DNA of 64,000 nucleotides from assembly GCA_030827135.1 (NCBI GenBank), contig JAURFE010000001.1, forward strand, positions 430,368-494,367. Direction: 5' to 3'. Position 1 is the first letter of the stretch. Every line of letters begins with the position of its first letter. Origin of the DNA: Vicinamibacterales bacterium. Its GTDB lineage: Bacteria > Acidobacteriota > Vicinamibacteria > Vicinamibacterales > SCN-69-37. The notes under the pieces were generated by a model that was not told the DNA's origin, made no database searches, and saw only the letters and a list, made by a program, of their open reading frames with translations. Both the position numbers and the translations under genes were made by a program. Positions 966 to 19,775 of this stretch are shown here, one piece after another.

Positions 966-3900
966 TTAACGCGTCAGGGGCGGCACCGAGCTGCCGCTCG
1001 GCGGCGCTGCGACCTGAATCGTCACCGGGGCGCTGAACGCACTCGCGCCCTGACGAATGCGCACGTCGATCGGTCCAGGTGCGGCGCCACCTGGCACGTT
1101 GACCTGCACGATCAACCCAATCACGCCGTTGGACAACGCGACACCTGCGCCGACATCCCAGGTAGTCGCGCCCTGCGTGAAGCGCACCACCGCGCCAGTG
1201 GTGTCGGTGCCGTACGCCCCGACATAGATCGTACTGCCCGCCGCGACCGGCGCGGCAACCACGTTGAGGCTCCCGTCACGAATCGCCGTGATCTGCGGCG
1301 TGCCAGGCACGGCGGTGATGGTGATCGGGAAGGCGTTGGTCACAACCGTGCCGGCGTTATTGCGCAGCCGAACCGTGGCGGCCCCGAGCGGCATCGCGGG
1401 CAGTCGCACATACCCGGCGGTCGCCGACGACGGCCCGCCGAACCAGAAGCCGTTCGCTGTTGCGACCCCGTTGGTCACCTCGGCGACGACATCACCGGGG
1501 GTGGCCGGCAGGTTCGTGCCCTGGAGCACCATGAAGCCGTCGTTTGCCGCGCCGTTGGCGGGAGTCGCGGAGTTGATCGTCGCTCCCGACACCACCTGCA
1601 CGCACTGCGAGAACTCCGACGTGTTGCCGTTCCCGTCGGTGGCCGTCGCCGTCAGGAACTGACCGGCCGGCACCAACTCGTTCAGCACCGCTCCGACCAC
1701 AACCATGTCACCCGCGCCGTCACTGATCTGCTGGAACGAGCCGACGAGGCGCTCGCCCTCGCCGTTGCCGGACACGTCACACACGCTGTTGGCAAACACC
1801 TGAATCGTGTGCAGCGCATTGATCTGCAGACTGTCGAGCGTGTAGTTGAACGTGGTGGCCACGCCCGCGTTGGACACGTTGCTCAAAACCGGGAAGTTCT
1901 GCCGATTGTTGGGTCCCCCATCGCCATCACCGGCATCGTTCACCGTAATAAAGTCCGCGCCCAGATCAATCGCCAGACTGCTGTTGCTGTAGATCCGGTT
2001 GCTGAGCAATTGGTTTCTGACGTCGCCGGCGGCCGCGTTGTAGCCCACCTGGATGCCGATGCCGTTGTTCCGGATCAGATTGCCGTTGACCGCTGTGCCG
2101 CCCACCGTCGCGCCCACGGTGCCTTCGACCAACCAGACCCCGGCCGTGATGTTGTGCGCGATGGTGTTGCGCTCCACGCGCGTGCCGGACTGGTCACCGT
2201 AGAGCCCGATGCCGATGCCGTTTGCAACAGCCCCCGCCAGCGACCGGGTGATACCCACGAAGTTGCCGGTGATGACGTTGGGCGCCTCGCCCAACGTGCC
2301 ACCCGACCGGATGCCCGGGGATTGACTGTGCGTGCTGCTGCCGCCCACGACGTTGTCGCGCACGATGTTGTTCGGGGCGTCGACGAAGAGGCCGGTCATA
2401 CAGCAGCCGATCTCCGGCGTCCCACCCTGCGGCATCCAGGCATTCCCCAGTGCCGCGTTGCCCGCGGCATTCACACCCACGAGGTTGTTCTCGATCGTCG
2501 TGTTGCCGTTGGCAAAGATGCCATCACCGAGATTGCCGGAGATCACGTTCTCCTTGCCCTCGCCGGGCTCACCGATCACGGCGCTCGACCCCACCACTTC
2601 AATGCCGCGCCGGTTGCCGCGCTCGGCGGTGCCGGCCGCGTTGGTGCCGATCCGGTTGCCGAGCACCCGGACCGCAGCCCCCACCGGTCCGGTGATGTGA
2701 ATGCCCGCACCCGTGTTGCCGGACACCGTGTTACCAGAGGCGGTGTCGTTACCGATGATCGTGCCCGTGCCCCGCACCACCCGGATGCCGCCGCCGGTGT
2801 TGCCCCGGTTAACCGGACCGCCGTTGACCACCGCACCGGGGCCCAGCCAGTTCGGGCCGCCGCGGCTGATCAGATTGCCTGACGCGTCCAGACCGATGAT
2901 GTTGTTCGTGATGACGGTATTGGTCACATCCGCCAGCCCACCAGACTGCTGGATGTCGATGCCGTAGCCATTCGGCTGACCGACGGTGCCGTTGCCGGAG
3001 ATCAGGTTGCCGTCAATGATGGTCGCAGTCGCGCCGTCGTAGAGCGTGATGCCGTTGTCGAGGTTGGGCATGGCCGTCAGCCCGTCCGCGCTCATGCCGA
3101 TGCGGTTTCCGGTAATCAGCGTGCCCGACCCGCCGACGATCAGGATGCCGGACGTCTGTGACGAGGAAATCACGTTGCGCGCAATCACGTGATTGGTGCT
3201 GTAGTTCAGCTGCACGCCAACGTTGTTGGCCGGCCACGTCATCACACCGACGCGTCCGGCGCCGATGGCGTTGTCTTCCACGCGCACGTTGTTGGTGCCG
3301 TTGTTGACATACACGCCGGGTCCCGGGAAGCGGTTGATGCCAAGACCACGGATGGTCACGTCCGAGGCAGCCACTTCGAACCCGGGCGCCAGGCCGAGAT
3401 TGGTGCCTGGCTGGTCGTCGTTATTGTTCGAGACGAGGTTCAGCATGAACCGGCCGTCAAGGTTGATCATCGGCGCCATAGAGACCGTGCCCGGCTGCGA
3501 CAAGCCGTCGATGATGACCGGATTCGAGATGACCGGCAGCGGTGTGGCTGGGGCGATGTGGTGGACCCACGCCCCAGGAATCGCAAAGGTAATCGTGTTC
3601 AGATCTGCCGCCGCGTTCGCCGCAATCACCGCCGCGCGCAGCGACCCTGGACCGCCGTCCGACGCATTGGTAACCACGAACGGACTCGGATCCGTCGCGC
3701 CATTGACGACCGCGGTGAAGGTACCCTCGAGGGCATAGGTACTATCATAATGGCTGCCGGCGAGCCGGAAGCCGTAGGTATCGCCGGGCTGCACGACCAC
3801 CGACGTCACGCCGGCGAAGGCAAAACCTGCGCTTGGGTTGTTCAAGCCGACACAGGTGTCGGCGTACTGCACCAACGGCGCCGTGAAGACATCAAGTCCG

Positions 3901-6900
3901 CCGCGGTTGACGAACGACTGCAGCTGGACGGTGGACAAACAGTAGGAGTGGAAACCGGTCCACTCCCAGTCAAGCCGCACCGCGCCGGCTCCGCCGGCGA
4001 CGCTCGACAAGCTCCAGGCGCCGTTGAAGTTCGGGATGCCGTTGCGCTGATAGGTCATCCGCGGTGTCCCGCTGACGAGGCCGTTGTCGACGAGCGCGAC
4101 GATGCCGTCACCCGTGGCCGACCAGGCGGCCGGCGGCGGTGGTGGTGGCACCACCGCGCCAACACCGAACGCGTCTGACAGGATGGGCATTGCCTGCGCC
4201 GCCGCGGCGGACGCCGACAGCCGATAACCCGCGCCATCCCGATCGATCGAGAGGCCGCCAAATGTCGCCAGGCCGGCGGCATCAGTCAGCACCGTGACGA
4301 CGCCATCGAGTTTGCCGCCAGACGGATTAATCGCAATCGCGATCGTCACCTGCACCCCGGGGGCCGGGTTGCCACCGGTCACCGCACGCACGACGACATC
4401 AGGAATCGGGCCACCCGCCAGCGTATTGGCCGGCTGGGTGACGAACGACAACACCGTCGTGGTCGGCGACGGCGGGGCCGGCGGATCGGTCGGCAGCGGC
4501 GTCGCGGGCGGATTGGGCATCGGGTCATTCAGGTCCGGTGTATTCACCGCGAGCGACTGAATGACCGGGGTCACGTCCGTCACCGGATTGATCCCGATGT
4601 TGTCGGTGGGATTGGGATCGACGATACGCAGCGTGATCTTGCCTTCACCGCCGGGCTCGAGCCACAACGTGGTGTTCGAAATGTCGGGATTCGCGGGATC
4701 AAACGTCGTGTCATCCCCGGCCGTCAGGAACGTCGGGTTCAGCACGTTCGCCACGAGCACGGTCTGGGTCTGTGACTTCAGCACGCAGCCATCCGACACG
4801 GGCGTCTTGTACGTCTTGTGGACGACGAGCTGGGTCTTGATCCCGCCGGCCGTCGCCGCCTGATTGGCGATGAACAGGTTCACATTGAAGCTGGCCGTGG
4901 TGTTGCCGTCGTTCCGAATCGTCCACGTCACATCGGTCAGCGAGCCGTTGGAAATGTCGGGATTCGAGATGTCGGGATTCGAGATATCCGGGTTCGAGAT
5001 ATCGGGATTCGAAATGTCCGGATTGGAAATATCAGGATTCGAAATATCCGGATTCGCAATGCGGACGTTTGAGATGTCGGGATTGGAAATATCCGGGTTC
5101 GAGATGTCCGGGTTCGAGATGTCCGGGTTGGAGATGTCGGGATTCGAAATGTCGGGGTTATAGACCTCCGCATTCGAAATATCGGGATTCGAAATGTCCG
5201 GGTTGGAGATATCCGGGTTGGAGATGTCGGGATTCGAGATATCCGGGTTCGAAATATCCGGATTCAGGATAACCGTCGTCGCCAATCCCCCGCTGATCGG
5301 GAGGAAGTCGGCCAGGCCGACTTCAGTCACCGAGACCCGCACCTGTTCCTTCGCGTTGGTGGACGTCGCGTAGACCGTGCGCGTGACCATCGACCTCGGC
5401 GCGACCTTCACATCGACCGACAGCAACAGCGGCTCGGGCGTGGCCAGGCCGAGCTGGTTGAACGACGCACTGCCGCCGACCGGCTGATTCTCAATCGTGA
5501 GGCGGTAGGCCTTCGTCTGATACGTCAGGTTCTGCGCGAACACCACGAAGCCGCGCGGCGTGTCCGTGCTGAGCGGCTTGGTGTTGCCGGGCGAACCCGC
5601 GATCAACCCCATCGTGATGCGGGCGGAATACACGTTCTGATTCCGCATGCCGGTCTGGCCGTCGGCACAGCCGATCCCGCCCGGGGGGGTGTAGTTCTGC
5701 CAGTTGCCGTCCTTGGGCTTCTGCACGTCACGGTTGTCTGTCCACACCGCGTGAAACACCGGCGCGGAGGTATTCGCAGTGTTGTGGATCCAGGTGCCGC
5801 CCGCGTTCTGCACAAACGCCGGCGCGGGCGCCACGTCGATGTAGTCGCCCATGAACGGCACGGTGCCCAACTGGAACAGCGGCAGGTTCGGCGCGTTGAA
5901 CTGCAACTGCTGCGCTGAGGCCCCGGCGGCACCGCGCAGGTTGCCTATCAGGTACTGCGACACCATCGTCGACGCACCGAACACCGGCACGTCGCCCTTC
6001 GGCGCCTGTACAGCGCGTACGTCGATAGTGTGGCGCCGGTCGGCCACCGCGATCGCATCACGCTCGGACACAAACGGACCGAACACCCGCGAGACGTCCT
6101 GACGCAGGTCGTAATAGACGATGAGGAGTCGACCGCCCGAATAGGACATCGACGGCATCATCTGGTGTCCGGGCAGGTCGGTGCCGTCGGGCTTCGAGTC
6201 CACCGCACGCGGCGTGGTCCACACGCCCGGGATCTTCGAGGTGGCGAGCACCACGCGGGCATCGCCAATGAGCGGATCGGATCGCGCCCCGGCGTAGCCG
6301 CGTTCGGTCCACGCCAGATAGACGCGGCTTTCGTCGTCAATCGCGATCGTGGGATACGCGTTGGTGCGGAACCGATCTTCTCCGGTGCCGGAGTCGAACG
6401 GCCGAATCGAGACCAACTGATGCACGTCGCCGTGGCGATGGGCGCGCTGCAGTTTCGGCTGAATCGCGTCGGCCTTCGGGCCGGGCTTGAACTCGTGCAC
6501 CTTCACGGGCTTCTTCGCGACCTTGGCGCTGATGTCGGGCGACACCGTCATGATCGCGTCGGGCGCAGTGGCCGTCAGGCCGAACTGGCGCCATGCCACA
6601 TGCACGGCGCCCGTGCTGGGATCCACCGCGATGGTCGCGCCCTGATTGACCTTGTGCGCCGGGTCGCTGATCTGGACCGGCGTGGTCCACGTCGCGCCGC
6701 AATCGGCCGAGCGCGAGAACATGATGCGCGACTCGATGTCCGACGCGCCGGTCGCGAGGGTCGTCGTCGTGATCTGGGCGTACGCGACATACATCGCGCC
6801 CGCCAGCACCTGCTGCGAGATGGTCTTCGCAATCCCGGGAGTCGGCAACACGGTCGGCGTGCCCTTCGCGGTACGCGTCTCCGTGATTGTCTGCGCGGCG

Positions 6901-7691
6901 GTAGACACGGCGCGGCCATCGGCCCCCTTGCCGGTCGGCGTCACACCCGCGACCGCCCCCGCGACCTGCGGCGCCGGTTGCTGCGTGGTGATGCGGCACA
7001 CTTTGGCGCCGGCGCGCGGCACGTCCACGGCCATCCACGGCTTGTCGAGGAAGGCCGCCCCCGTCGAACTGGCCACGATCGATGTGGAGACGTACGCGAT
7101 CGGGTCGCCGTTCTCCTTGTTGTTGTTGTCCACAAACCGCGACACGAAAATCGCGCTCGCGCCACCTTCGCCGCGGTTAAACGCCAGACCCGCGTAATAC
7201 AGCAGACCGTTGGTGCCGGGCCGCACGACCGGGTCCGCACCGGCGTGATACGCCTTCAGCGGAGACGCCATGCCTTCCGCGGAGGTGTCCTGCGGATAGC
7301 CGGGCAGGAGCGTGCTCTGCCACCGTTCGCCGCCGTCAAATGACTTGAAGACGCCGAGCCACGCGTCGCCCGTCTCCCCGTCGTCGAAGTTACCGGGGAT
7401 GTCCACAGTCCGGTAATCGTTGGCGCCAGCCAGCAGGTGCAGCGGGTTGCGCGTCGAGGCTGCCACCGACGGCTCATTCTGACGCTGCAGATACGGGTCG
7501 CCGTTGGGCAATGTCTGCCCCGACACCATATTCACGTTGCGACCGACGACCAGGTCCAATCCGGGGTCCGCCACCTGAGCCGATGGCCACACGGCCCCGA
7601 GCACCAGGGCACCGCCTAGCGCGACAAGACCGGCCAAGGAACGTACGCGGGTGCCTGAAGGCTGAACACTTCGGCGTCTGTTTTGTGACAT
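966..7691 (-). CDS. Giant secreted multidomain protein (BNR/Asp-box propeller, Ig-like/CARDB-like modules, NPDIS pentapeptide array, parallel beta-helix, IPT/TIG-like C-terminus)
   Basis: One uninterrupted ORF. The preferred start is the ATG at 7691, preceded by AAGGA 8 nt upstream (the ORF-track start at 7730 is a GTG with no SD). The N-terminus is a basic region followed by the hydrophobic stretch LAGLVALGGALVLGAVW, i.e. a signal peptide. Asp-box motifs SFDGGERW and SADCGATW are present. A long run of beta-helix-like repeats follows (GIxI, NxIxGN). Other landmarks are a DGDGGPNNRQNFPVL motif, TATATDGNGNTSEFSQC and two Ig-like terminal modules. Confidence 0.85.
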   Translation of the reverse strand: MSQNRRRSVQPSGTRVRSLAGLVALGGALVLGAVWPSAQVADPGLDLVVGRNVNMVSGQTLPNGDPYLQRQNEPSVAASTRNPLHLLAGANDYRTVDIPGNFDDGETGDAWLGVFKSFDGGERWQSTLLPGYPQDTSAEGMASPLKAYHAGADPVVRPGTNGLLYYAGLAFNRGEGGASAIFVSRFVDNNNKENGDPIAYVSTSIVASSTGAAFLDKPWMAVDVPRAGAKVCRITTQQPAPQVAGAVAGVTPTGKGADGRAVSTAAQTITETRTAKGTPTVLPTPGIAKTISQQVLAGAMYVAYAQITTTTLATGASDIESRIMFSRSADCGATWTTPVQISDPAHKVNQGATIAVDPSTGAVHVAWRQFGLTATAPDAIMTVSPDISAKVAKKPVKVHEFKPGPKADAIQPKLQRAHRHGDVHQLVSIRPFDSGTGEDRFRTNAYPTIAIDDESRVYLAWTERGYAGARSDPLIGDARVVLATSKIPGVWTTPRAVDSKPDGTDLPGHQMMPSMSYSGGRLLIVYYDLRQDVSRVFGPFVSERDAIAVADRRHTIDVRAVQAPKGDVPVFGASTMVSQYLIGNLRGAAGASAQQLQFNAPNLPLFQLGTVPFMGDYIDVAPAPAFVQNAGGTWIHNTANTSAPVFHAVWTDNRDVQKPKDGNWQNYTPPGGIGCADGQTGMRNQNVYSARITMGLIAGSPGNTKPLSTDTPRGFVVFAQNLTYQTKAYRLTIENQPVGGSASFNQLGLATPEPLLLSVDVKVAPRSMVTRTVYATSTNAKEQVRVSVTEVGLADFLPISGGLATTVILNPDISNPDISNPDISNPDISNPDISNPDISNAEVYNPDISNPDISNPDISNPDISNPDISNPDISNVRIANPDISNPDISNPDISNPDISNPDISNPDISNPDISNGSLTDVTWTIRNDGNTTASFNVNLFIANQAATAGGIKTQLVVHKTYKTPVSDGCVLKSQTQTVLVANVLNPTFLTAGDDTTFDPANPDISNTTLWLEPGGEGKITLRIVDPNPTDNIGINPVTDVTPVIQSLAVNTPDLNDPMPNPPATPLPTDPPAPPSPTTTVLSFVTQPANTLAGGPIPDVVVRAVTGGNPAPGVQVTIAIAINPSGGKLDGVVTVLTDAAGLATFGGLSIDRDGAGYRLSASAAAAQAMPILSDAFGVGAVVPPPPPPAAWSATGDGIVALVDNGLVSGTPRMTYQRNGIPNFNGAWSLSSVAGGAGAVRLDWEWTGFHSYCLSTVQLQSFVNRGGLDVFTAPLVQYADTCVGLNNPSAGFAFAGVTSVVVQPGDTYGFRLAGSHYDSTYALEGTFTAVVNGATDPSPFVVTNASDGGPGSLRAAVIAANAAADLNTITFAIPGAWVHHIAPATPLPVISNPVIIDGLSQPGTVSMAPMINLDGRFMLNLVSNNNDDQPGTNLGLAPGFEVAASDVTIRGLGINRFPGPGVYVNNGTNNVRVEDNAIGAGRVGVMTWPANNVGVQLNYSTNHVIARNVISSSQTSGILIVGGSGTLITGNRIGMSADGLTAMPNLDNGITLYDGATATIIDGNLISGNGTVGQPNGYGIDIQQSGGLADVTNTVITNNIIGLDASGNLISRGGPNWLGPGAVVNGGPVNRGNTGGGIRVVRGTGTIIGNDTASGNTVSGNTGAGIHITGPVGAAVRVLGNRIGTNAAGTAERGNRRGIEVVGSSAVIGEPGEGKENVISGNLGDGIFANGNTTIENNLVGVNAAGNAALGNAWMPQGGTPEIGCCMTGLFVDAPNNIVRDNVVGGSSTHSQSPGIRSGGTLGEAPNVITGNFVGITRSLAGAVANGIGIGLYGDQSGTRVERNTIAHNITAGVWLVEGTVGATVGGTAVNGNLIRNNGIGIQVGYNAAAGDVRNQLLSNRIYSNSSLAIDLGADFITVNDAGDGDGGPNNRQNFPVLSNVSNAGVATTFNYTLDSLQINALHTIQVFANSVCDVSGNGEGERLVGSFQQISDGAGDMVVVGAVLNELVPAGQFLTATATDGNGNTSEFSQCVQVVSGATINSATPANGAANDGFMVLQGTNLPATPGDVVAEVTNGVATANGFWFGGPSSATAGYVRLPAMPLGAATVRLRNNAGTVVTNAFPITITAVPGTPQITAIRDGSLNVVAAPVAAGSTIYVGAYGTDTTGAVVRFTQGATTWDVGAGVALSNGVIGLIVQVNVPGGAAPGPIDVRIRQGASAFSAPVTIQVAAPPSGSSVPPLTR
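4950..5264 (-). repeat. 21 x 15-bp in-frame tandem repeat encoding (NPDIS)6-NAEVY-(NPDIS)6-NVRIA-(NPDIS)7
   Basis: Read directly from the sequence: units such as ggaaatgtcgggatt, cgagatatccgggtt and cgaaatatccggatt on the plus strand. Copies differ mostly at synonymous positions. A solitary NPDIS copy lies at 4688-4702. Confidence 0.95.
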
Positions 7692-7721
7692 AATTGTAAT
7701 CCTTGTACCAGGAACAGACTG

Positions 7722-7751
7722 ATTATGCACATAAAACTCTCAGGGTGCCAG
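7722..7751 (-). promoter_or_regulatory. Candidate sigma70-type promoter of the giant gene
   Basis: On the minus strand: CTGGCA, 18 nt, CATAAT (plus-strand attatg at 7722-7727). It lies in the only AT-rich stretch of the divergent region. It would give a leader of about 24 nt carrying the AAGGA SD. Confidence 0.35.
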
Positions 7752-7800: not shown

Positions 7801-8304
7801 ATGGCTTCGCAACCGTCCTTCGACATCACCTCAAAAGTCGACCTCCAGGAGGTCGATAACGCCATCAATCAGGCCAAAAAGGAGCTGGCCCAGCGCTTCG
7901 ACTTCAAAGGATCCAAGTCGACGATTGAGCTAAAAGCCAAGGAAAACCAGGTCGAGCTGGTCGCCGACGACAACTTCAAGATGGACGCCGTCTGGGAAAT
8001 CGTGCAGACGCGCCTGCACCGCCGGGGTGTGCCGACCAAGAACCTGAAGCTTGGAGACCTGGAGCCGATCGGCGGGGGCATGGTGAAACGGAAGGTCGAA
8101 TTGCAGCAGGGTGTCAGCGCAGATGCAGCCCGCGACATCATCAAGTTCGTAAAAGACCAGAAATTGAAGAAGGTGCAGGTCACCATTCAGGGCGACCAGC
8201 TCAGGGTCACCTCCGGCTCGAAGGACGAACTCCAGAATGCCATCCGCCTGTTGCGCGGGGGCGACTTCGGCCTCGAGCTGCAGTTCGGCAACTTCCGCGA
8301 ATAG
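7801..8304 (+). CDS. yajQ: YajQ family nucleotide/cyclic-di-GMP-binding protein (UPF0234)
   Basis: The N-terminus SFDITSKVDLQEVDNAINQAKKELAQRFDFKG and the length of about 165 aa are characteristic of YajQ. Confidence 0.9.
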   Translation: MASQPSFDITSKVDLQEVDNAINQAKKELAQRFDFKGSKSTIELKAKENQVELVADDNFKMDAVWEIVQTRLHRRGVPTKNLKLGDLEPIGGGMVKRKVELQQGVSADAARDIIKFVKDQKLKKVQVTIQGDQLRVTSGSKDELQNAIRLLRGGDFGLELQFGNFRE

Positions 8305-8336
8305 GTTCTGGCACCCGACTTGCTCCAGTCAGGAGC

Positions 8337-8711
8337 GTGCGACTGCTGGAATACCGTCAGAACACCGGAAAACTGGGCGAAGACCTCGCCACGGTGGAAC
8401 TCTGGCACCAGGGGTACGCAATTCTTGCCAGACGATATCGCACCCGGTACGGCGAAATTGACATCGTCGCCCAGGATGGCGAGACGATTGTGTTTGTGGA
8501 AGTGAAGGCGCGACGGACCGATCGCTACGGGACGGCCGCCGAAAGCGTGACGCCCTGGAAACAACGCCGCATCGCGGCGATGGCGCTCGACTACCTGGCG
8601 TGGTCACACAGGCTCGACGCCCCGTGCCGGTTTGATGTGGTCGCCATTGATGGCGTCGGCACCGAACGCGTCACGATTCAGCACATCAAGAGCGCGTTCT
8701 GCGCGGAGTGA
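8337..8711 (+). CDS. yraN: YraN family endonuclease-like protein (UPF0102)
   Basis: GEDLA...GYAILARRYRTRYGEIDIVAQDGETIVFVEVKARR matches the YraN core. The GTG start is uncertain because AGGAG lies only 1 nt upstream. Confidence 0.8.
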   Translation: MRLLEYRQNTGKLGEDLATVELWHQGYAILARRYRTRYGEIDIVAQDGETIVFVEVKARRTDRYGTAAESVTPWKQRRIAAMALDYLAWSHRLDAPCRFDVVAIDGVGTERVTIQHIKSAFCAE

Positions 8712-8724
8712 CCGCTTTACTGCT

Positions 8725-10137
8725 TTACTTCCGTTTCCAGCGGGTCCCGGCGGGACCGTCTTCAAGGATGATGCCGCGCGCGTCGAGGTCGACGCGAATC
8801 TGATCGGCAAGGGCGAACTGGCGATTGACGCGTGCCAGCCGCCGCGCTTCAACCAGCGCCGTGATCTCCGCGTCGTCGGCGGACGGGGTGGCGTCTTCCG
8901 CCCGTCTGAGGCTGATGACACCCAGCACCTGATCGAACTCACCAAACGCCGCACGAATCGCCTCGGCATCAGGCCGGCCCACGCCGCGGGCATCAATCGC
9001 CGCATTGAGCTCGCGGAGCACCTCAAACATCACGCCAAGTGCGCCGGGCACGTTCAAATCGTCGGCGATGTGTGTGCGAAACGCCCGCCGGGCCGCCTCA
9101 AGTCGGGCGAGCACCTCCGGGTGCGCGTCCCCGCCGGCCACGGCATCCACACGAGCCAGAAAGTCGGTCAGTCGCGTCAGGGCCGCGTCCGCCTGCGCCA
9201 GGATGTCGAAGCTGAACGTCAGCTGCTTGCGATAGTGCACCGACATCAGCAGGTAGCGCAGAGCCGACGGCCGGAAGCCACGGTCGCGAATGTCCTGGAT
9301 GTTGTAGACATTGCCGAGCGACTTCGACATCTTCTCGTGCTCGAGATTCAGAAACTCGACGTGCACCCAGAAGCGCGCAAACTGGCGCCCTGTCGCGCAT
9401 TCGGCCTGCGCGATCTCGTTTTCGTGGTGCGGGAAGATCAGATCGATCCCGCCGCCATGGATGTCAATCGGCCCGTCGCCCAGCAGACGCAGCGCCATCG
9501 CCGAGCACTCGATGTGCCAGCCGGGCCGGCCTGGACCGCAGCCGTAGTCCCAGGTCGGCTCGCCGGGTTTGGTGGACTTCCACAACACGAAGTCCCGCGC
9601 GTCATGCTTCGTGTAGGTATCGGCATCCACGCGCGCGCCCGCCTGAATCCCCTCGTGATCCAGTCGCGCCAGCTTCCCGTAATCGGGCATGGTCGCGATG
9701 CGGAAGTACGTGGAGCCTTCTGATTCGTAGGTGTGCCCACGCTCGCCCAGCGCCTGAATCATGCCGGTCATCGCACGCAGGTTGGCTTCATCGGTGGCGC
9801 GCGGATTTTCCTCAACCGCCTCAAGCCCGAGCGCGGCGCAATCCTCATGGAACGCCTGGATGTAACGGTCGGTGTACGCGCGAAGCGACACACCCGCCTG
9901 CGCGGAGGCCGTGATGGTCTTGTCGTCCACGTCCGTGAAGTTCACGACGTGACGCATGGCATAACCTTCCTGATGCCGGAGGGCACGACGCAACACGTCC
10001 AGCGCGACAAACGTGCGGAAGTTGCCGATGTGCCCGCGGGCGTACACGGTCAAGCCGCACGTATACATGCGCACGGTCTTGCCGTCGGCGGGTACGAACG
10101 TCTCTTCAGTTCTGGTGAGAGTGTTATACAGGCGCAC
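8725..10137 (-). CDS. cysS: Cysteine--tRNA ligase
   Basis: HIGN (HIGH-type) and KMSKS motifs are present, and the N-terminus VRLYNTLTR is typical of CysS. The GTG at 10137 is chosen as start because the upstream gene stops at 10140. Confidence 0.95.
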   Translation of the reverse strand: MRLYNTLTRTEETFVPADGKTVRMYTCGLTVYARGHIGNFRTFVALDVLRRALRHQEGYAMRHVVNFTDVDDKTITASAQAGVSLRAYTDRYIQAFHEDCAALGLEAVEENPRATDEANLRAMTGMIQALGERGHTYESEGSTYFRIATMPDYGKLARLDHEGIQAGARVDADTYTKHDARDFVLWKSTKPGEPTWDYGCGPGRPGWHIECSAMALRLLGDGPIDIHGGGIDLIFPHHENEIAQAECATGRQFARFWVHVEFLNLEHEKMSKSLGNVYNIQDIRDRGFRPSALRYLLMSVHYRKQLTFSFDILAQADAALTRLTDFLARVDAVAGGDAHPEVLARLEAARRAFRTHIADDLNVPGALGVMFEVLRELNAAIDARGVGRPDAEAIRAAFGEFDQVLGVISLRRAEDATPSADDAEITALVEARRLARVNRQFALADQIRVDLDARGIILEDGPAGTRWKRK

Positions 10138-10139
10138 GC

Positions 10140-10424
10140 TTACCCCTTCGGGGTCAGCACCGGATGCGTGACCACCGATGACCGGTCGCCGCAACGCACC
10201 GTCACCTCAACCTGACCGGCGAGGGTCCGGAAGTCCATCGTGACCGCGTCCAGGTCCCCGGCCGTCACCGCCACGGTCTCGACCGCCCCAGCGACGGCTG
10301 AGGCCACCGACGCCACGTCCGCCTCTGAGCCGCCCTGAGCCGCGCAGTACTTCCCCGCCAATTCCGCGCCGATCGCGCGAAACCGCGCGTCCAGCGGGAC
10401 AAGCAATTGCACTCGGTCCGACAT
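10140..10424 (-). CDS. Hypothetical 94-aa protein
   Basis: ORF between ribF and cysS, ending 2 nt before the cysS start. The ATG at 10424 is preceded by TAGAAT 8 nt upstream. I recognise no confident family. Confidence 0.5.
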   Translation of the reverse strand: MSDRVQLLVPLDARFRAIGAELAGKYCAAQGGSEADVASVASAVAGAVETVAVTAGDLDAVTMDFRTLAGQVEVTVRCGDRSSVVTHPVLTPKG

Positions 10425-10451
10425 CGGCAACGATTCTACCTCGGAGGTGCC

Positions 10452-11384
10452 TTACAGGCCCAAATCCGCCAGCACATGCCGGGCCGCCTGGCAGTCGTCG
10501 CCAATCTGCGCGGCCAGCGCCTCGAGTGACGAGTACTTCCGCTCCTCGCGAAGCCAGCGCACAAAGGCGACCCGCATCGACTTGCCGTAGAGGTCCATGG
10601 ACGCATTCAGCAGATACGTCTCCACCATCACACGGTTGTCGCCGATCGTGGGGCGGATGCCGACGCTCGTGACCGCGGGAAACACGACGCCGTCAATCAT
10701 CGCGACCGTGGCATAAATGCCGTACGCGGGGAGCTGCTCGTTCTGCGTCTGGAGATTCGCGGTGGGATACCCGAGCTCGCGCCCCCGGCCATCGCCGTGC
10801 ACCACCACGCCATCAAGCGCATAGTGGTGGCCCAGCAGATCGCCGGCCTCTTCCACCCGGCCCTCCGCGAGCAGGTGCCGGACACGCGTGCTCGAGACCA
10901 CAAAGTCCTTGAACCGGACCGGGTCGATCTTTTCCGCGCGAAAGCCCCGGTCCTCACCCAGAGCCTTGAGCAGCGTAAACGTGCCCATCCGATCGCGACC
11001 GAACAGGAAGTTCGCGCCGACCCACACTTCGGAGACACGCAACCACTCCACCAGCACCGTGTCCACAAACGTCTCGGGCTCCCACCGGGCCATCTCCGGC
11101 GTGAACTGGACGACCACCACCCCCTGAATGCCGGCCCGCCCGCAAGCCTCGATCTTCTGGTCGAGGGTCATCAGCAAGGGCGGGGCCTTGTCGGGACGCA
11201 CCACGCGGGGCGGATGGGGATCAAAGGTGACGACAACGGGCGTACCCGCACAACGGTCCGCCTGCCGGCACACCTGGTCCAGGATCTTCTGGTGCCCGCG
11301 ATGCACACCGTCAAAATTGCCGAGCGCAGCGACGGGCCGGGGCCAGAGCGGTGGGGCGTCGTTGGGGAACCGGGCTACGAACAT
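10452..11384 (-). CDS. ribF: Bifunctional riboflavin kinase / FMN adenylyltransferase
   Basis: GNFDGVHRGHQ motif, plus a C-terminal riboflavin kinase region (GYPTANL, TYLL). About 310 aa. Confidence 0.93.
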   Translation of the reverse strand: MFVARFPNDAPPLWPRPVAALGNFDGVHRGHQKILDQVCRQADRCAGTPVVVTFDPHPPRVVRPDKAPPLLMTLDQKIEACGRAGIQGVVVVQFTPEMARWEPETFVDTVLVEWLRVSEVWVGANFLFGRDRMGTFTLLKALGEDRGFRAEKIDPVRFKDFVVSSTRVRHLLAEGRVEEAGDLLGHHYALDGVVVHGDGRGRELGYPTANLQTQNEQLPAYGIYATVAMIDGVVFPAVTSVGIRPTIGDNRVMVETYLLNASMDLYGKSMRVAFVRWLREERKYSSLEALAAQIGDDCQAARHVLADLGL

Positions 11385-12142
11385 ACGAGACGCAAACCAT
11401 CGTATGCGAGCGTGACGCCTTCAGGAAGCGTCGCGCATGTGGCCGCGTGCCCAAGGTCGTGGCACATGTGCGTGAAGTACGTCCGCGACGCGCCGATGCG
11501 GCCGGCCATCTCCACCGCCTCAGTCAGCGAAAAGTGCGTGGGGTGCGGGCGATGGCGCAAGGCGTCAAGGACGAGGACCTCAAGACCGTGCAGTTGGGCC
11601 AGCGTCTCGTCAGGCACGCTGTTGCAGTCAGTCAGATACGCAAAACGGCCGACACGGAACCCCAGCACCGGTGCATGCCCGTGATACAGCGTGAGCGGTT
11701 CGAACGACAGGGCCCCAATCGAAAACCGCCCGGCGATGGGAATCAGGTCGGCTTGGGGGACGCCCCCGCCACGCGGCGCGTCAGGATCAAAGGCATAGCC
11801 GAACGTGCGCTGCAAACCGGCAAGCGTCGCCCGGTCGCCATGGACCCGCATCGCGCGCTTCGCCAGCACGTTGAAACGCCGCAATTCATCAAAACCCAGA
11901 ATGTGGTCGGCATGCGCATGGGTGTAGACCACCGCATCCACGCGCGCGATGTCGTGGCGCAGACACTGCTGGCGCAAATCCGGTGTCGTGTCCACCAGTA
12001 CCACCGTCCCATCGTCGCCTTCCAGCACAATCGATGGGCGCAACCGGTTATCCCGCGGGTCATCCGACCGGCAGACGGCACAGGCACAGCCGATCATGGG
12101 CACCCCGTGCGACGTGCCGGTCCCGAGAAACAGCACTTTCAC
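11375..12142 (-). CDS. MBL-fold metallo-hydrolase (PhnP/YycJ-like)
   Basis: MKVLFLGTGTSHGVP, a CxxC insert and THAHADH (the HxHxDH motif). Confidence 0.85.
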   Translation of the reverse strand: MKVLFLGTGTSHGVPMIGCACAVCRSDDPRDNRLRPSIVLEGDDGTVVLVDTTPDLRQQCLRHDIARVDAVVYTHAHADHILGFDELRRFNVLAKRAMRVHGDRATLAGLQRTFGYAFDPDAPRGGGVPQADLIPIAGRFSIGALSFEPLTLYHGHAPVLGFRVGRFAYLTDCNSVPDETLAQLHGLEVLVLDALRHRPHPTHFSLTEAVEMAGRIGASRTYFTHMCHDLGHAATCATLPEGVTLAYDGLRLVCS

Positions 12143-12188
12143 GCCTTACAGATTACAGGCGTTCGCACACTCTGTTACCTTCTTGGCC

Positions 12189-13037
12189 ATGCCTGTTTCG
12201 ACGCACACGCGCGCCGCACGCGCTGCTCGCGCGATGGCGCGATTGGTTCGCATCATGGCCACGCTCAGATCCCCGGATGGCTGTCCGTGGGATCGCAAAC
12301 AGACACACCGGACTCTGCGGCCCTTCCTGCTCGAAGAAACGTACGAAGCGCTGGAGGCCCTCGACCGCGAGGACCACAAGGCGCTGCCAGGAGAGTTGGG
12401 CGACGTGTTGTTCCAGGTTGTGTTTCACGCGCAAATCGCCGCAGAAAAGCGTCGCTGGGATATGGCGGACGCGCTGACCGCCATTGCCGACAAACTTATT
12501 CGCCGCCATCCCCATGTCTTCACGGCGTCTGGCCGCAAGCTGCCGCGGTCGCGTGGGCGGAAAGGCCGTACGCCGAAAACGCCGGCCGCCGTGCTGACGC
12601 AGTGGGAGCAGCTCAAGGCGGCCGAACAGTCGGGGCGAGGAGAACAGCGACGGGTCCTGGCCGGCGTTCCAAAATCGCTGCCCTCGCTCTTGCGGGCGCA
12701 TGAGATTGGCACTCGCGTGGCGTCGGTGGGCTTCGACTGGCCGGACACCGCCGGGGTCGTGGACAAGATCGACGAAGAAGTGCGCGAGTTGCGCGAAGCG
12801 GTGACCGAGAGTCCCGCGCGTGCGGCCGAAGAACTCGGTGACCTCCTCTTCTCGATTGCCAACCTCGCGCGCAAGCTCAACATCGAGCCGGAGTCCGCGC
12901 TGCGCGCTGCCAACGACAAGTTCTCGGCGCGGTTTGCCGCCGTGGAAGCCGACCTCGAAGCCCGAGGCTCCTCGGTCCATGCCGCGTCCGTTGAGGAGAT
13001 GGAGGCCGCGTGGCAACGCATCAAAGCACACGGCTGA
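12189..13037 (+). CDS. mazG: Nucleoside triphosphate pyrophosphohydrolase MazG (tandem MazG domains)
   Basis: LRSPDGCPWDRKQTHRTLRPFLLEETYEALEAL and a second EELGDLLFSI module. Start is the ATG at 12189. Confidence 0.9.
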   Translation: MPVSTHTRAARAARAMARLVRIMATLRSPDGCPWDRKQTHRTLRPFLLEETYEALEALDREDHKALPGELGDVLFQVVFHAQIAAEKRRWDMADALTAIADKLIRRHPHVFTASGRKLPRSRGRKGRTPKTPAAVLTQWEQLKAAEQSGRGEQRRVLAGVPKSLPSLLRAHEIGTRVASVGFDWPDTAGVVDKIDEEVRELREAVTESPARAAEELGDLLFSIANLARKLNIEPESALRAANDKFSARFAAVEADLEARGSSVHAASVEEMEAAWQRIKAHG

Positions 13038-13624
13038 CGGCGGCGGACCTGCCGGAGGTCATCGATGTCATGGCCGATGCGTTCCGCGACTACCCGGTCA
13101 TGCGCTATGTCGTCGGTCCGGGCGGTGATGTCGGAGCGAGAACGCGGCGCCTGGTCGAACTGTTCGTCACTCGTCGCCTCCGCCGCGGCGGGCCCATGTT
13201 CGGTGTCGTCGACCGCGACTCCGGCACACTGGCGGCGGCCGCGATTCTCACGTTGCCGACAGAGGCGCCTCCACCCGAGGACCTCGCACCCTGGGTCGAC
13301 GCGATCTGGACGGCGCTCGGATCGGACGCATTTGATCGGTACCAGCAGTACGCGGCGAGCTGGCCGGTCATCGAGGCCACGCCGCATCACCACCTGAACA
13401 TGATCGGCGTCCGCCGCGCCCACGCCGGATCCGGGCTCGCGCGCGCGCTCCTGACAACCGTCGCGGCTCTGGCCGATGCCGACCCGGGTTCATCGGGCGT
13501 CTCGCTGACGACGGAAGTGGCGCGCAACGTGCCGTTCTACGAACACTTCGGCTACCAGGTCGTGGGCCACAAGGTGGTGTCGCCACCGCTCGAGACGTGG
13601 GCGCTCCTCAGACGATGTCCATGA
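13010..13624 (+). CDS. GNAT family N-acetyltransferase
   Basis: Acetyl-CoA-binding-like segment IGVRRAHAGSGLARALL and a C-terminal FYEHFGY. The GTG start overlaps the mazG 3' end, so the start is uncertain. Confidence 0.75.
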   Translation: MATHQSTRLTAADLPEVIDVMADAFRDYPVMRYVVGPGGDVGARTRRLVELFVTRRLRRGGPMFGVVDRDSGTLAAAAILTLPTEAPPPEDLAPWVDAIWTALGSDAFDRYQQYAASWPVIEATPHHHLNMIGVRRAHAGSGLARALLTTVAALADADPGSSGVSLTTEVARNVPFYEHFGYQVVGHKVVSPPLETWALLRRCP

Positions 13625-16037
13625 CGCGGCCGCTGATCGATCGCAGGCGGACAACGCGCCCATCGGTCTCAATGATCACGGCACCATGCTGATCCGTGCG
13701 CAGGACGTGAACATCGCGGGCCGAGAACCGGCCCAGCACTTCGGCCGAAGGATGACCAAAGAGATTCCCCGCGCCGGCACTGATGATCGCGGCGTGCGGC
13801 ACGTACAGGTCAAGGAAGTGGTCGCTCGACGACGACCGGCTGCCGTGGTGGGCGACTTTCAGGATCCTGATGCGGGGCGGCGCCCCGGCCCGGTCAGCGA
13901 CGGGAGCCTGTGATTCGTACTCCGGTCCGGCGTCGCCGGTCAGCAGTACTGAGACATCGCCGTATCGCAGTTCCAGCACCAGCGAATCGTCATTGCGCAC
14001 ACGCACGCGCTGCCAGTCGGCTGGTGGCGGGTGTTGAACGGCGATGTGCACGGCACCGAGTTCAAGTTTGTGACCGGCCTGAAGTCGTCGCCAGCCCATC
14101 CCACGGTGCTGCGCGAGGGTGCGCAGGTCGAGCAACGTCGAATCGGCATCCACCGGAATGCCCTCCCACACTTCCCGCGGCGACAGGTCCTCGACGACGC
14201 GCCGGGCGCCGCCGGCGTGATCAAGGTCACCGTGGGTCACGGCAAACCAGTCGAGGCGTCGTTCGCCCAAGGCCCACACGGCGGGCGTCGTCACGCGGCC
14301 GCCCACATCAAACGAGCCGCCGGGCGTGCCGCCGGCATCGACGAGCAATGCGTGCCGGCTCGGCGTCTGTACAAGCACAGCCTCCCCCTGCCCGACGTCA
14401 AGGATGGACACCCGCAGCCACCCGGCAGCGGGCCGCCTGAGCGGCACCCACGGCGATGTGACGATGACGATGAGCAGACCCGCCGCCACGACGACCGCGG
14501 CGCGCCGCCACGACGGCCGGGGCCACACCAGTGCCAGCGCAAGGGCGGCGTAGTACGCGCTCACCCACGCGAGATTTGACGATGGCACACGCCAGGAGAG
14601 CCACGGTGCGAGATCAAGCGCCGCTGAGGATCCCAGCAGCACGGTCGTCGCGGAATGCGCCAGCCACGCGGCCGCCGCAGCCGCCGGCGCCGACACGATC
14701 GCCAGGAGGCAGACGGCCATTCCGGCAAGTTGGACAACACCCATCGCTGGAATGGCGATCAGGTTCAGCAGCAGCCCCGCCACCGTGACGCGGCCGAACA
14801 CCTGCGCACTCACCGGCATGATGATGAGTTCAGCGGCGACCGTGGCAAGGCACGCAACAACAAGCCAGTCCCAGGCCGCCCGCCATCCACGTGAGGGACG
14901 TGCGTGGCGCCGCGCCTGATCAATCAGGCGCGGCAGGACGACGATGAGTCCGAAGGTCGCGCCGAACGACAGCCAGGCCCCCACATCGAGCACGGTGAGC
15001 GGCGACCAGGCGACGCACACGGCAGCCACCACAGCCAGCAGGTTCACGGGCTTCGGCGGCACGCCGCGCAGGCGAAGACCGAGATAACACAGGGCCGCCA
15101 GCACCGCCCGGGTGACCGACGACTCGTCGCCGACGATCGCGCCGTACGAGGCGACGACGCCGATCGTGATCACCAGAGGCACGGTCTGCGAGCGCGTGAC
15201 CAGCCGCAGCCCGAGCAGACATGCCACAGCCAGCATCGCGACGTTGCCGCCGGAGATGGCGATGACATGGAAGGTGCCGGCCGCCTGCAGTCTGCGCACC
15301 AACGCCTCATCGAGCCCGGCGCGATCGCCAATCAGAATCGCCGTCACCACCGCGCGACTCGACTCTGCATGGGGGCCGAGGTACCTCGTCACACTGCGCC
15401 GGACATGCGCCCGCACCGACGCGGCCCGTTCCTGCCACCACGGTCCCGCAGCCACGTCCACCAGCGCGGCGCTCTTGATGGTGCCCAACAGATCAAACGG
15501 CTGCGTGAGGTGTTGCCAGTCCACCGGGGGCGAGCCCGGATTGCGCACCACATCGGGACGCCGAAACCGGGTGGGTGCGGTGAATGGCCGGCCGCGGGTC
15601 CACGAGGTAATGGCGGCCGGGCCGAGGGTGCCTGCCACCGTGACTCGCGCCCGTCGACCATCAATCAGGAGTTCAACCCGAACGCCTGTCCGCGACAGCA
15701 CCGCATCCGAGAGCAACACGCCGGTGACCACGCGGGGCGCATCCCCGAACATCTCGGGCGGCACTGGACGCAACACCGATACACGGGTCCCGGCTCCGTA
15801 GGCCGCCGCGGCGCTCGCCACCACCACCAGCGTCACCCGAGGGCACGGCCACACGAGCCCAACGGCGATTGTGGCCAGGCCAAGCCCGACCGCGGGGGCC
15901 AGTACTCCCTCCCAGACCACACCAATCGCGACACCCGCCACCCACACGAGGCATCCCCGCAACCCGGCAGACATGCCCCGAGCGACCTGCAACCCATGCC
16001 AGGCGCGCTCCCACGTCCGGACGTGGGGGCGTGGCAC
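13608..16037 (-). CDS. comEC: DNA internalization competence protein ComEC/Rec2
   Basis: Polytopic membrane core plus a C-terminal MBL domain (ILDVGQGEAVLV, THGDLDHAGG, VAHHGSRSS). The start could be the GTG at 16037 or the ATG at 15974. Confidence 0.9.
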   Translation of the reverse strand: MPRPHVRTWERAWHGLQVARGMSAGLRGCLVWVAGVAIGVVWEGVLAPAVGLGLATIAVGLVWPCPRVTLVVVASAAAAYGAGTRVSVLRPVPPEMFGDAPRVVTGVLLSDAVLSRTGVRVELLIDGRRARVTVAGTLGPAAITSWTRGRPFTAPTRFRRPDVVRNPGSPPVDWQHLTQPFDLLGTIKSAALVDVAAGPWWQERAASVRAHVRRSVTRYLGPHAESSRAVVTAILIGDRAGLDEALVRRLQAAGTFHVIAISGGNVAMLAVACLLGLRLVTRSQTVPLVITIGVVASYGAIVGDESSVTRAVLAALCYLGLRLRGVPPKPVNLLAVVAAVCVAWSPLTVLDVGAWLSFGATFGLIVVLPRLIDQARRHARPSRGWRAAWDWLVVACLATVAAELIIMPVSAQVFGRVTVAGLLLNLIAIPAMGVVQLAGMAVCLLAIVSAPAAAAAAWLAHSATTVLLGSSAALDLAPWLSWRVPSSNLAWVSAYYAALALALVWPRPSWRRAAVVVAAGLLIVIVTSPWVPLRRPAAGWLRVSILDVGQGEAVLVQTPSRHALLVDAGGTPGGSFDVGGRVTTPAVWALGERRLDWFAVTHGDLDHAGGARRVVEDLSPREVWEGIPVDADSTLLDLRTLAQHRGMGWRRLQAGHKLELGAVHIAVQHPPPADWQRVRVRNDDSLVLELRYGDVSVLLTGDAGPEYESQAPVADRAGAPPRIRILKVAHHGSRSSSSDHFLDLYVPHAAIISAGAGNLFGHPSAEVLGRFSARDVHVLRTDQHGAVIIETDGRVVRLRSISGRVMDIV

Positions 16038-16119
16038 AAATTGCCACGCGCGAATAAACGCCGGGGACGCGATCCGGTTGTGGGCGCGGTGCCATCCGGG
16101 AGTCGAGTCCGCTTGACAG

Positions 16120-16518
16120 CTAGTCCTCGCGCTTCACGCGACCGCGCGCCGACTTGATGCGCCCGCGAATGACCTTGTCGGCAATGCGCGCCTGTTTGGC
16201 GGACCGCGAGGGCTTCGTTTTGCGGCGCGACTTCGGGACGACATGCGCGAGGTCCAGGAGCGCGGAGAGACGCGCGCGGGCCGCCTCGCGATTCTGCGCC
16301 TGGGTGCGATATTCCCGGCTGTCAATCACCAGCACATCATCAGCCGTCAACCGACGGCCGGCGAGCACACGGAGGCGCAACTTGACGCCCTCGGCCAGCG
16401 GCGCCGCAGACACATCCAGACGCAGTTCCACCGCCGTGGCCACCTTGTTGACATTCTGACCGCCCGGGCCCGAGGCTCTGACGAAGCGCTCGGTGATGGG
16501 CAGTGCATCGAGGGTCAT
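16120..16518 (-). CDS. arfB: Alternative ribosome-rescue factor ArfB (peptidyl-tRNA hydrolase)
   Basis: [10 protein letters not shown] (GGQ motif) and a basic C-terminal tail. The start overlaps the carB stop (ATGA). Confidence 0.9.
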
Positions 16519-19500: not shown

Positions 19501-19766
19501 GTCGGCAGAATCGCATCCGGCCGCTCGCGCGCAATCACCTGCTCCAGCGCGGCCACCGTCAGCGGTTCCACATAGGTCCGATCCGCCAGTTCCGGGTCGG
19601 TCATGATCGTGGCGGGGTTGCTGTTGACCAGCACCACTTCGAGACCTTCGTCCCGAAGCGCCTTGCACGCCTGAGTGCCGGAGTAGTCAAACTCACAGGC
19701 CTGACCGATGACAATCGGCCCGGAGCCGATCACGAGCACACGCTTGATATCCGTTCGCTTGGGCAT
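16515..19766 (-). CDS. carB: Carbamoyl-phosphate synthase large subunit
   Basis: 1083 aa with duplicated ATP-grasp halves and the N-terminus [30 protein letters not shown]. Confidence 0.97.
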
Positions 19767-19775
19767 GAAATCCTG

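Follow-up and report, generated by a model that had tools for sequence, protein, structure and literature searches.

We describe here an array of five-residue repeats in a giant secreted or surface protein of a Vicinamibacterales bacterium (Acidobacteriota). The protein is encoded in a stretch of 64,000 nucleotides (contig JAURFE010000001.1, positions 430,368 to 494,367), which we refer to as the window and to which all coordinates below apply unless a homologous locus is named. The array occupies residues 823-927 of a 2254-residue product (nt 4950-5264, minus strand) and reads (NPDIS)6-NAEVY-(NPDIS)6-NVRIA-(NPDIS)7, giving 21 in-register pentads, 19 of them exact NPDIS units, precisely as set out in an original prediction made from the letters of the window. 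It is a conserved module of fixed architecture that lies in the conserved N-terminal half of its host protein and defines a large acidobacterial family of giant secreted proteins, and the units of the array are old, individually inherited and held identical by selection on the peptide rather than by homogenization of the DNA. Our searches returned no valid Pfam or NCBIfam match to the array and, in the literature library searched, only unrelated acronyms and no paper describing an NPDIS repeat. The sole NCBI name for family members, "right-handed parallel beta-helix repeat-containing protein," refers to their C-terminal domain, which supports the original view that the repeat is previously undescribed. 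We tentatively propose that the array forms a regular rod, a fold and spacer function that we infer from the evidence discussed below. The host gene and the parts of the array are as follows.

966-7730, minus strand: open reading frame (ORF) of the host protein, 2254 residues, GTG start, with full-length homologues P0017-P0165
5175-5264, minus strand: block A, six NPDIS units (family mode five; five, six or seven in close relatives)
5160-5174, minus strand: special pentad NAEVY, unit 7 (family form N-x-E-[VI]-[Y/H/F], following block A)
5070-5159, minus strand: block B, six NPDIS units (family mode six; fixed at six in close relatives)
5055-5069, minus strand: special pentad NVRIA, unit 14 (family form N-[VIL]-x-[VI]-[A/L])
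4950-5054, minus strand: block C, seven NPDIS units (family mode seven; fixed at seven in close relatives)

The pentad register, with Asn at position 1 and Ile, Leu or Val at position 4, runs one unit beyond the array into NGSLT (nt 4935-4949), which opens the following beta-sandwich domain and precedes its near-invariant D-x-T-W...N-x-G-N-T signature. On the other side, the preceding domain ends in a conserved GGLxxxVxL motif whose final ten residues, SGGLA and TTVIL (nt 5265-5294), are already in pentad register and retain the hydrophobic position 4. At the DNA level, Tandem Repeats Finder (TRF) reports a 15-nt period in 20.8 copies. The 19 NPDIS units are nevertheless encoded by 15 different DNA sequences, with all differences synonymous and zero amino-acid changes (AAT/AAC 11:8, CCG/CCC/CCT 10:8:1, GAC/GAT 10:9, ATC/ATT 10:9, TCG/TCC/TCA 12:6:1). 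The longest exact DNA repeat in the array is 32 nt, which is not shorter than under random codon draws, and we therefore do not claim that codon choice actively avoids DNA repeats. Third-position codon usage in the array is relaxed or shifted toward T: the T:C ratio of the window's Asn, Asp and Ile codons is 31:29 in the array against 97:284 elsewhere in the ORF (p=9e-5), and GC content at third positions is 0.68 against 0.84. Across loci, the share of T at third positions is 0.30 in the array and 0.23 in the flanks, and is higher in the array at 45/55 loci. TRF scores are higher at 30 and 45 nt, suggesting a superperiod of two or three units, but synonymous-site lag analysis found none in the window and, pooled over loci, only a marginal bump at lags 6-7. 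Three plus-strand ORFs (4818-5072, 4864-5163 and 5069-5272) and one out-of-frame minus-strand ORF (4937-5173) overlap the array; we regard these as by-products of the repeat and not as genes, their products being periodic mirror peptides such as EMSGFEISGF.

The family to which this protein belongs is large. A word-indexed search returned 16 relatives, and an exhaustive profile search returned 7838 proteins at E<=1e-3, of which 871 reach E<=1e-30, almost all of the latter from Acidobacteriota; these counts are of representatives at 50% identity, that is, of clusters at most 50% identical to each other. The top match in the family is P0017 (1e-201). In a scan of GTDB species genomes, 70 loci encoded relatives, nearly all in metagenome-assembled genomes (MAGs) of Acidobacteriota (Vicinamibacterales and relatives), with L007-L009 the closest to the window at 96%, 95% and 91% identity. 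The array is present at the same place in every family member inspected, including those missed by our first parser, and long arrays were met only in this acidobacterial family.

Unit and layout statistics were drawn from 109 representative proteins. Positions 1-4 of the unit are N in 97%, P in 83%, D in 70% and I, V or L in 98% of cases, and position 5 is variable (S 26%, E 23%, A 17%, T 14%, and others); the commonest replacements for Pro at position 2 are A, V, T, S and L. Approximately 40 different pentads serve as a protein's commonest unit, positions 3 and 5 varying by lineage (examples are NPDIS, NPDIE, NPDIA, NPDIT, NPDVS, NPAIE, NPRLQ, NPSIQ, NPNIS, NPDIM, NADIE and NQDIA), and uniform within a protein, where a median of 80% of the units are identical to the commonest type. 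Mixed arrays also occur, for instance in P0085 (A/E), P0030 (D/N) and P0106 (Q/R). In some lineages Met or Leu at position 5 gives two hydrophobic residues per pentad (NPDIM, NPDIL, NPDLM). Two MAGs carry paralogue pairs, L022 with L069 (on one contig) and L018 with L037; the first two are both of NPDIS type, though L069 is only 35% identical to the window protein, and the other pair is NPDIS and NPDIA.

The layout is shared as well as the unit. In the family, block A is followed by N-x-E-[VI]-[Y/H/F], block B, N-[VIL]-x-[VI]-[A/L], block C, NGxLT and then D-x-T-W...N-x-G-N-T, with block modes of five for A (52/83), six for B (29/59) and seven for C (39/59), and with a total number of pentads that has a sharp mode at 21 (34/109) in a range of 12-28. 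The window protein has both the conserved flanks and this layout, as SGGLATTVIL, six units, NAEVY, six units, NVRIA, seven units and NGSLT-DVTWTIRNDGNTT. The size of the array and its special pentads are so conserved that it is unlike free linkers or slippage-prone repeats.

Comparison of related loci shows how the array evolves. The 6-1-6-1-7 layout of the window recurs in three independent MAGs (L007, L008 and L009), so the copy number is not an artefact of the window assembly. In close relatives (79-96% identity), block A has five, six or seven units, B always six and C always seven, and position 3 of the N-V-x-I-A pentad changes among R, L, Q and V; the original suggestion of a length-polymorphism hotspot is thus partly supported, by block A and not by blocks B and C. 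Using the third codon positions of the 13 units in blocks B and C, we found that units match the same-position unit of a relative in excess of shuffled units at L007, L008, L009, L012 and L014 (p=0.0008-0.018), and that the array and its flank have similar codon identities (0.55-0.71 and 0.54-0.75, respectively). This positional synonymous signal saturates at deeper divergence. Positional matching together with codon identity that tracks the flank indicates that the units have been inherited one by one, without turnover. Furthermore, when loci are pooled, neighboring units show no greater DNA similarity than distant units do, contrary to the expectation under slippage.

Among the 22 loci of NPDIS type, 398 of 400 N-P units are exact NPDIS, while identity in the domain-2 flank falls to 63% (L014), without gaps, and whole-match identity to 59-60% (L016-L018). 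No other part of the protein is thus so well conserved, the reverse of what holds for a typical linker. Seven NPDIS arrays (L005, L014, L015, L017, L019, L020 and L052) mix TCN and AGY serine codons, two families that are not connected by any single synonymous step. The original claim of selection on the peptide rather than recent slippage is borne out by the zero non-synonymous changes at near-saturated synonymous sites in the window and, in related arrays, by positional orthology, the missing neighbor effect and these mixed serine codons. In L005, the two serine codon families nearly alternate, producing a 30-nt DNA period beneath the 15-nt peptide period.

A second site carries the same pentad. 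It lies in the domain that follows the array, modeled here with AlphaFold2 (AF2) and its predicted local distance difference test (pLDDT) score.

4551-4949, minus strand: beta-sandwich domain 2, residues 928-1060, with AF2 strands (pLDDT 65-83) and nearly invariant columns
4677-4691, minus strand: mini-array, a single (orphan) NPDIS at residues 1014-1018, in the loop before strand NTTLWLEPGG of domain 2

The orphan starts 87 residues after the end of the array; the original prediction was right about its existence and its distance of about 85 residues, and placed it 11 nt off, at nt 4688-4702. In 47 of 127 family proteins this loop holds one to four exact copies of the protein's own pentad type, against 0.6 expected in a control with another protein's type. 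The matching holds for more than 25 types, including mixed arrays (NPDIM/NPDIQ), and a test for compensation found no correlation between mini-array size and main-array length. Whatever determines the pentad type acts on both the main array and the mini-array. With no sign in the DNA of ongoing homogenization, a shared structural or recognition constraint is likelier than gene conversion.

From N- to C-terminus, the 2254-residue protein comprises a signal-like N-terminus, approximately 700 residues with two Asp-box-like motifs, beta-sandwich domain 1, the pentad array, beta-sandwich domain 2, a Pro/Thr linker, further domains, a right-handed beta-helix and a C-terminal tail. The parts not yet listed are the following.

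7569-7730, minus strand: N-terminal 54 residues, a basic stretch, the hydrophobic stretch LAGLVALGGALVLGAVW and then AQVA, read from the sequence
7320-7343 and 6687-6710, minus strand: Asp-box-like motifs SFDGGERW and SADCGATW, residues 130 and 341, within the N-terminal ~700 residues
5265-5558, minus strand: beta-sandwich domain 1, approximately residues 725-822, with AF2 strands (pLDDT 70-90), kept in all homologues
4455-4535, minus strand: Pro/Thr-rich linker DLNDPMPNPPATPLPTDPPAPPSPTTT after domain 2
2799-3371, minus strand: right-handed parallel beta-helix region (Pfam Beta_helix and NosD)

By eye, the N-terminal 54 residues look like a putative signal peptide. The N-terminal region of approximately 700 residues has no Pfam match, and residues 61-700 (640 residues) have no match in a PDB sequence search; with regard to a BNR/Asp-box beta-propeller, the region contains two motifs of the S-x-D-x-G-x-x-W kind, without a matching profile. 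The Pro/Thr linker contains a 27-nt tandem repeat in two copies (4461-4513, by TRF). The constant part of the family is the N-terminal ~1050 residues, array included, and the C-terminal halves, to which the beta-helix region belongs, differ among members; Pfam searches of downstream fragments at two loci (L002:3334-11349 and L003:10460-16613) found CLIPPER, FG-GAP, Lectin_C, PKD and NosD/Beta_helix.

The reading of these results that we favor, tentatively, is that the array is a selected, regular rod of fixed length, either a solenoid or a beta-turn spiral, which spaces the N-terminal module from domain 2 and the C-terminal payload. Asn at position 1 and the hydrophobic residue at position 4 are the invariant skeleton of each unit; in this model, Ile, Val or Leu would be stacked away from solvent, Asn would hold each turn, and positions 3 and 5 would form chemically uniform surface stripes. 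Such a rod could keep the N-terminal module at a fixed distance from, and in a fixed orientation to, domain 2 and its variable payload, and the mini-array in the domain-2 loop may belong to the rod or dock on it. As the NPDIM, NPDIL and NPDLM types consist of 40% hydrophobic residues, a disordered chain is implausible.

Several observations weigh against a rod. AF2 gave the window array a pLDDT of ~33 and no secondary structure, with both flanking domains confident, and the NADIE array of a homologue (P0008), the best case for a pentapeptide-repeat fold, a pLDDT of ~35 and no strands. Foldseek comparison of the AF2 model with the PDB returned nothing significant and no pentapeptide-repeat protein, its matches being insignificant jelly-rolls only (influenza haemagglutinin head, template modeling score ~0.14), which are not informative. 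Neither the window protein nor its array matches Pfam Pentapeptide at E<=0.1, and the NCBIfam model penta_Alr5209 scores 17.5 bits on the window array against a cut-off of 125. The residues N, P, D and S rank with those most prone to turns and disorder. The window array carries a net charge of -19, and arrays of NPDIE type one of approximately -40, which would mean strong repulsion in a compact solenoid without counter-ions. In some family members the register is broken by interruptions of three to four residues. Lastly, runs of three to five NPDIS or NPDIN units occur in unrelated proteins of Onthoplasma, Pseudanabaena, a Desulfobacteraceae MAG and Anaerovibrio (L073:615-797, L075:6001-6090, L076:6001-6099 and L074:5651-5806), apparently as plain inter-domain linkers. 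Both AF2 runs used monomers and shallow alignments (14-15 sequences), so their low confidence is negative evidence rather than a refutation.

A more specific form of the rod, possible though on balance doubtful, is the canonical pentapeptide-repeat beta-helix, called conceivable in the original prediction, in which four pentads would make one coil, with Pro (i-2) and Ile (i) pointing inward and Asn (i+2) at the corners. HMMER searches with the array, and with a profile of 37 diverse arrays, matched almost only solved pentapeptide-repeat proteins (4yfo, at 1e-11 and 1e-14, 2j8k, 2o6w, 6omx and QnrB1), with DotG/IcmE and one phage tail-tip fibre as further matches. The pentapeptide-repeat proteins are the only solved proteins aligned in a consistent register, the proposed one, with P at i-2, D at i-1, I at i, S at i+1 and N at i+2; a periodic query set against a periodic target inflates such E-values. 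Some homologous arrays in which Pro is replaced by Ala, Ser or Gly (NADIE, NSDIE, NGDIT) match the Pfam models Pentapeptide, Pentapeptide_2, _3 and _4 (5/37, best 6.5e-15), scores that are likewise inflated by periodicity. The unit numbers are also suggestive, in that the usual maximum of four units in the mini-array would equal one coil and the modal 20-21 pentads approximately five; the total unit counts, however, show no preference for multiples of four. Matches to Pfam Extensin_1 (40-45 bits on the array against a cut-off of 105), HTH_24, Prok_Ub, GLTT and CfAFP were rejected as compositional or periodic artefacts.

AF2 usually recognizes the pentapeptide-repeat fold readily, yet it folds neither array type (NPDIS or NADIE; pLDDT ~33-36), and an array lacking secondary structure is the outcome that the original prediction had named as refuting, here at the level of prediction only. 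The published consensus from i-2 to i+2 is (A/C/S/V/T/L/I)(D/N/S/K/E/I/R)(L/F)(S/T/R/E/Q/K/V/D)(G/D/E/N/R/Q/K) (PMC8145042). When P-D-I-S-N is set against it, i-1, i+1 and i+2 fit, and Pro at i-2 and Ile at i lie outside the sets. The residues that mostly replace Pro at position 2 in the family (A, V, T, S, L) belong to the published i-2 set (PMC8145042). Conversely, K, E, Q and H are tolerated at the x of the xEVY pentad, an odd set for an i-2 position that faces inward. The Alr5209 analysis defines the beta-turn by residues i-1 to i+2, and the inter-coil bonds that it describes for such turns employ the carbonyl of i+1 and the amide of i+2 (PMC7337050); as these bonds do not involve the amide that Pro lacks, Pro at i-2 is not obviously forbidden. 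The window array has the contiguity of a pentapeptide-repeat protein, with 21 in-register pentads, or 22 with NGSLT, and falls below the threshold of every curated profile. The best reading of these comparisons is that the array is related by sequence to pentapeptide-repeat proteins, probably as a proline-type relative and not as a canonical member; we do not file it as a member because the consensus and curated-model tests fail, although it may function like one.

It is also conceivable, though unlikely, that the array represents a new kind of repeat module, in which approximately 20 units and a distant mini-array are held to one lineage-specific pentad code without DNA homogenization. If so, it would be either a new proline-cored solenoid with uniform stripes matched to a periodic ligand, for example a polysaccharide, a mineral lattice or a self-assembly partner, or the substrate of a co-evolving reader that inspects every pentad by binding, modifying or cleaving at N-P.

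The idea of a reader can be separated from that of a fold. The array might be a disordered platform, analogous to the heptads of the RNA polymerase II C-terminal domain or the NANP repeats of the malaria circumsporozoite protein, with each pentad serving as a beta-turn epitope for a partner that binds, modifies or cleaves it; this would explain why one type is shared by all units and the mini-array and co-varies by lineage. N-P-D is an ideal Asx-Pro/type I turn sequence, and the pLDDT of ~33 is what a disordered platform would give. The simplest explanation for units that are all identical without DNA homogenization, with a mini-array of the same type ~85 residues away, is that something reads each of them. 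We nevertheless consider this platform improbable. Neither the fixed 5-1-6-1-7 layout nor the conserved hydrophobic position 4 is required for docking, and the paralogue pair of differing types (NPDIS and NPDIA) argues against one genome-wide reader. Ser or Thr stands at position 5 in only ~40% of types, so O-glycosylation could not be general, and N-P is not a known glycosylation sequon. Homologue loci share no common neighboring gene families, and no candidate partner or modifying enzyme adjoins the window gene: no secretion or modification partner is found among the identified neighbors (7801-20909), all of them housekeeping genes.

7801-8304, plus strand: DUF520/YajQ
8725-10194, minus strand: CysS
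10452-11384, minus strand: RibF
13608-16037, minus strand: ComEC
16515-19766, minus strand: CarB
19776-20909, minus strand: CarA

A plain flexible or entropic spacer, with neither structure nor reader and with its regularity a by-product of its origin, would account for the low AF2 confidence, the composition rich in turn and disorder formers, the linker-like behavior of short NPDI[SN] runs elsewhere and the variation of block A by one unit either way in close relatives. Linkers, however, normally evolve fast and vary in length. This array is more conserved than the folded domains adjoining it, its size and the positions of its special pentads are conserved across hundreds of clusters, its position 4 is 98% Ile, Val or Leu, and some types have two hydrophobic residues per pentad, which together make a plain spacer very improbable. 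The remaining alternative, that of a recent replication-slippage expansion or an assembly artefact, draws on the perfect periodicity and on frameshifts or collapse in other assemblies (P0013, P0016, L068, L071) and is refuted by the 15 DNA versions of 19 units with a longest exact repeat of only 32 nt, by neighboring units being no more similar than distant ones, and by the identical layout in three independent MAGs within a family of conserved architecture. Three further candidates were set aside: Ca2+-binding repeats (the NPRLQ, NPSIQ and NPAIS lineages are without acidic residues), 2A-like NPGP skipping (a G-P pair is missing, the spacing does not fit and translation is on a bacterial ribosome) and a multi-core precursor of the ribosomally synthesized and post-translationally modified peptide (RiPP) type (the array lies between folded domains, with no processing genes nearby).

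Errors in public data deserve separate mention. Frameshifts lie inside or beside the arrays of long-read MAG assemblies (L068 ~6001-6897, L071 ~6001-7247 and P0013), turning for example NPDIE into NPGYRESRHRE. In the metagenome protein P0016, two NPDIS units are joined directly to NASLWLAPGE, which merges the main array, the first four domain-2 strands and the mini-array; either a deletion occurred naturally between the two sites of the repeat or the assembly collapsed there. In public data, sequencing and assembly errors do concentrate at pentad arrays, in line with the assembly-collapse hotspot of the original prediction; the copy number in the window is not such an artefact.

The broader interest of this system lies first in its scale: the family comprises hundreds of clusters of secreted proteins of 1000-5000 residues from soil and sediment Acidobacteriota, and the N-terminal half that defines it, array included, is unannotated, the public names covering only the C-terminal beta-helix. 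Second, the array offers an exceptionally clear example from nature of a peptide repeat kept perfect by purifying selection on each unit. The type switches wholesale between lineages and the switch is mirrored at a second site, which is hard to accommodate in the usual slippage and gene-conversion models and suggests that every unit is read by some rule of structure or recognition. For repeat evolution, the surprise is the combination of a frozen, uniform array, type switching by lineage and a distant mini-array of the same type. A pentapeptide-repeat helix, should the array adopt one, would widen the sequence rule for such helices to include proline at i-2 and would expose a blind spot of current structure prediction. 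On the practical side, pentad arrays cause frameshifts and collapses in public assemblies.

Comparison with known repeat systems places the array between several of them. It resembles pentapeptide-repeat proteins (the PF00805 clan with the Rfr fold, including MfpA, Qnr, Np275/276, Rfr23 and Alr5209) in its strict five-residue period with at least eight contiguous units, and in following their sequence rule at four of five positions, with Asp at i-1, a branched hydrophobic residue at i, Ser, Glu, Thr or Gln at i+1 and Asn at i+2. It differs from them in having Pro at i-2 in 83% of units and Ile in place of Leu or Phe at i (PMC8145042). Further differences are the near-identity of units within one protein, the fixed layout with two special pentads and the position between beta-sandwich domains of a secreted giant protein; moreover, the array passes no curated model and AF2 does not predict the fold.

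The C-terminal domain of RNA polymerase II, (YSPTSPS)n, offers a likeness of another kind, since there too identical units are under purifying selection while their DNA differs; it is, however, intracellular and eukaryotic, with known readers and modifying enzymes, whereas no reader candidate adjoins the array gene. The Ser-Asp stalks of staphylococcal Clf/Sdr proteins are likewise peptide repeats of surface proteins with degenerate third positions and a spacer role, presumed for the array, between a functional domain and the rest of the protein, but these dipeptide stalks vary greatly in length and lack both a fixed architecture and a hydrophobic position. Elastin VPGVG, flagelliform silk GPGGX and the NANP/NPNA repeat of the Plasmodium circumsporozoite protein are beta-turn repeats with Pro at position 2. 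The array shares with them short tandem units in which Pro stands second and is followed by a turn-favoring residue, as well as low prediction confidence and a possible stalk or spacer role in an extracellular protein. Unlike those repeats, which vary in copy number and tolerate substitutions, the NPDIS array conserves its number, its layout and every residue, together with an invariant hydrophobic position.

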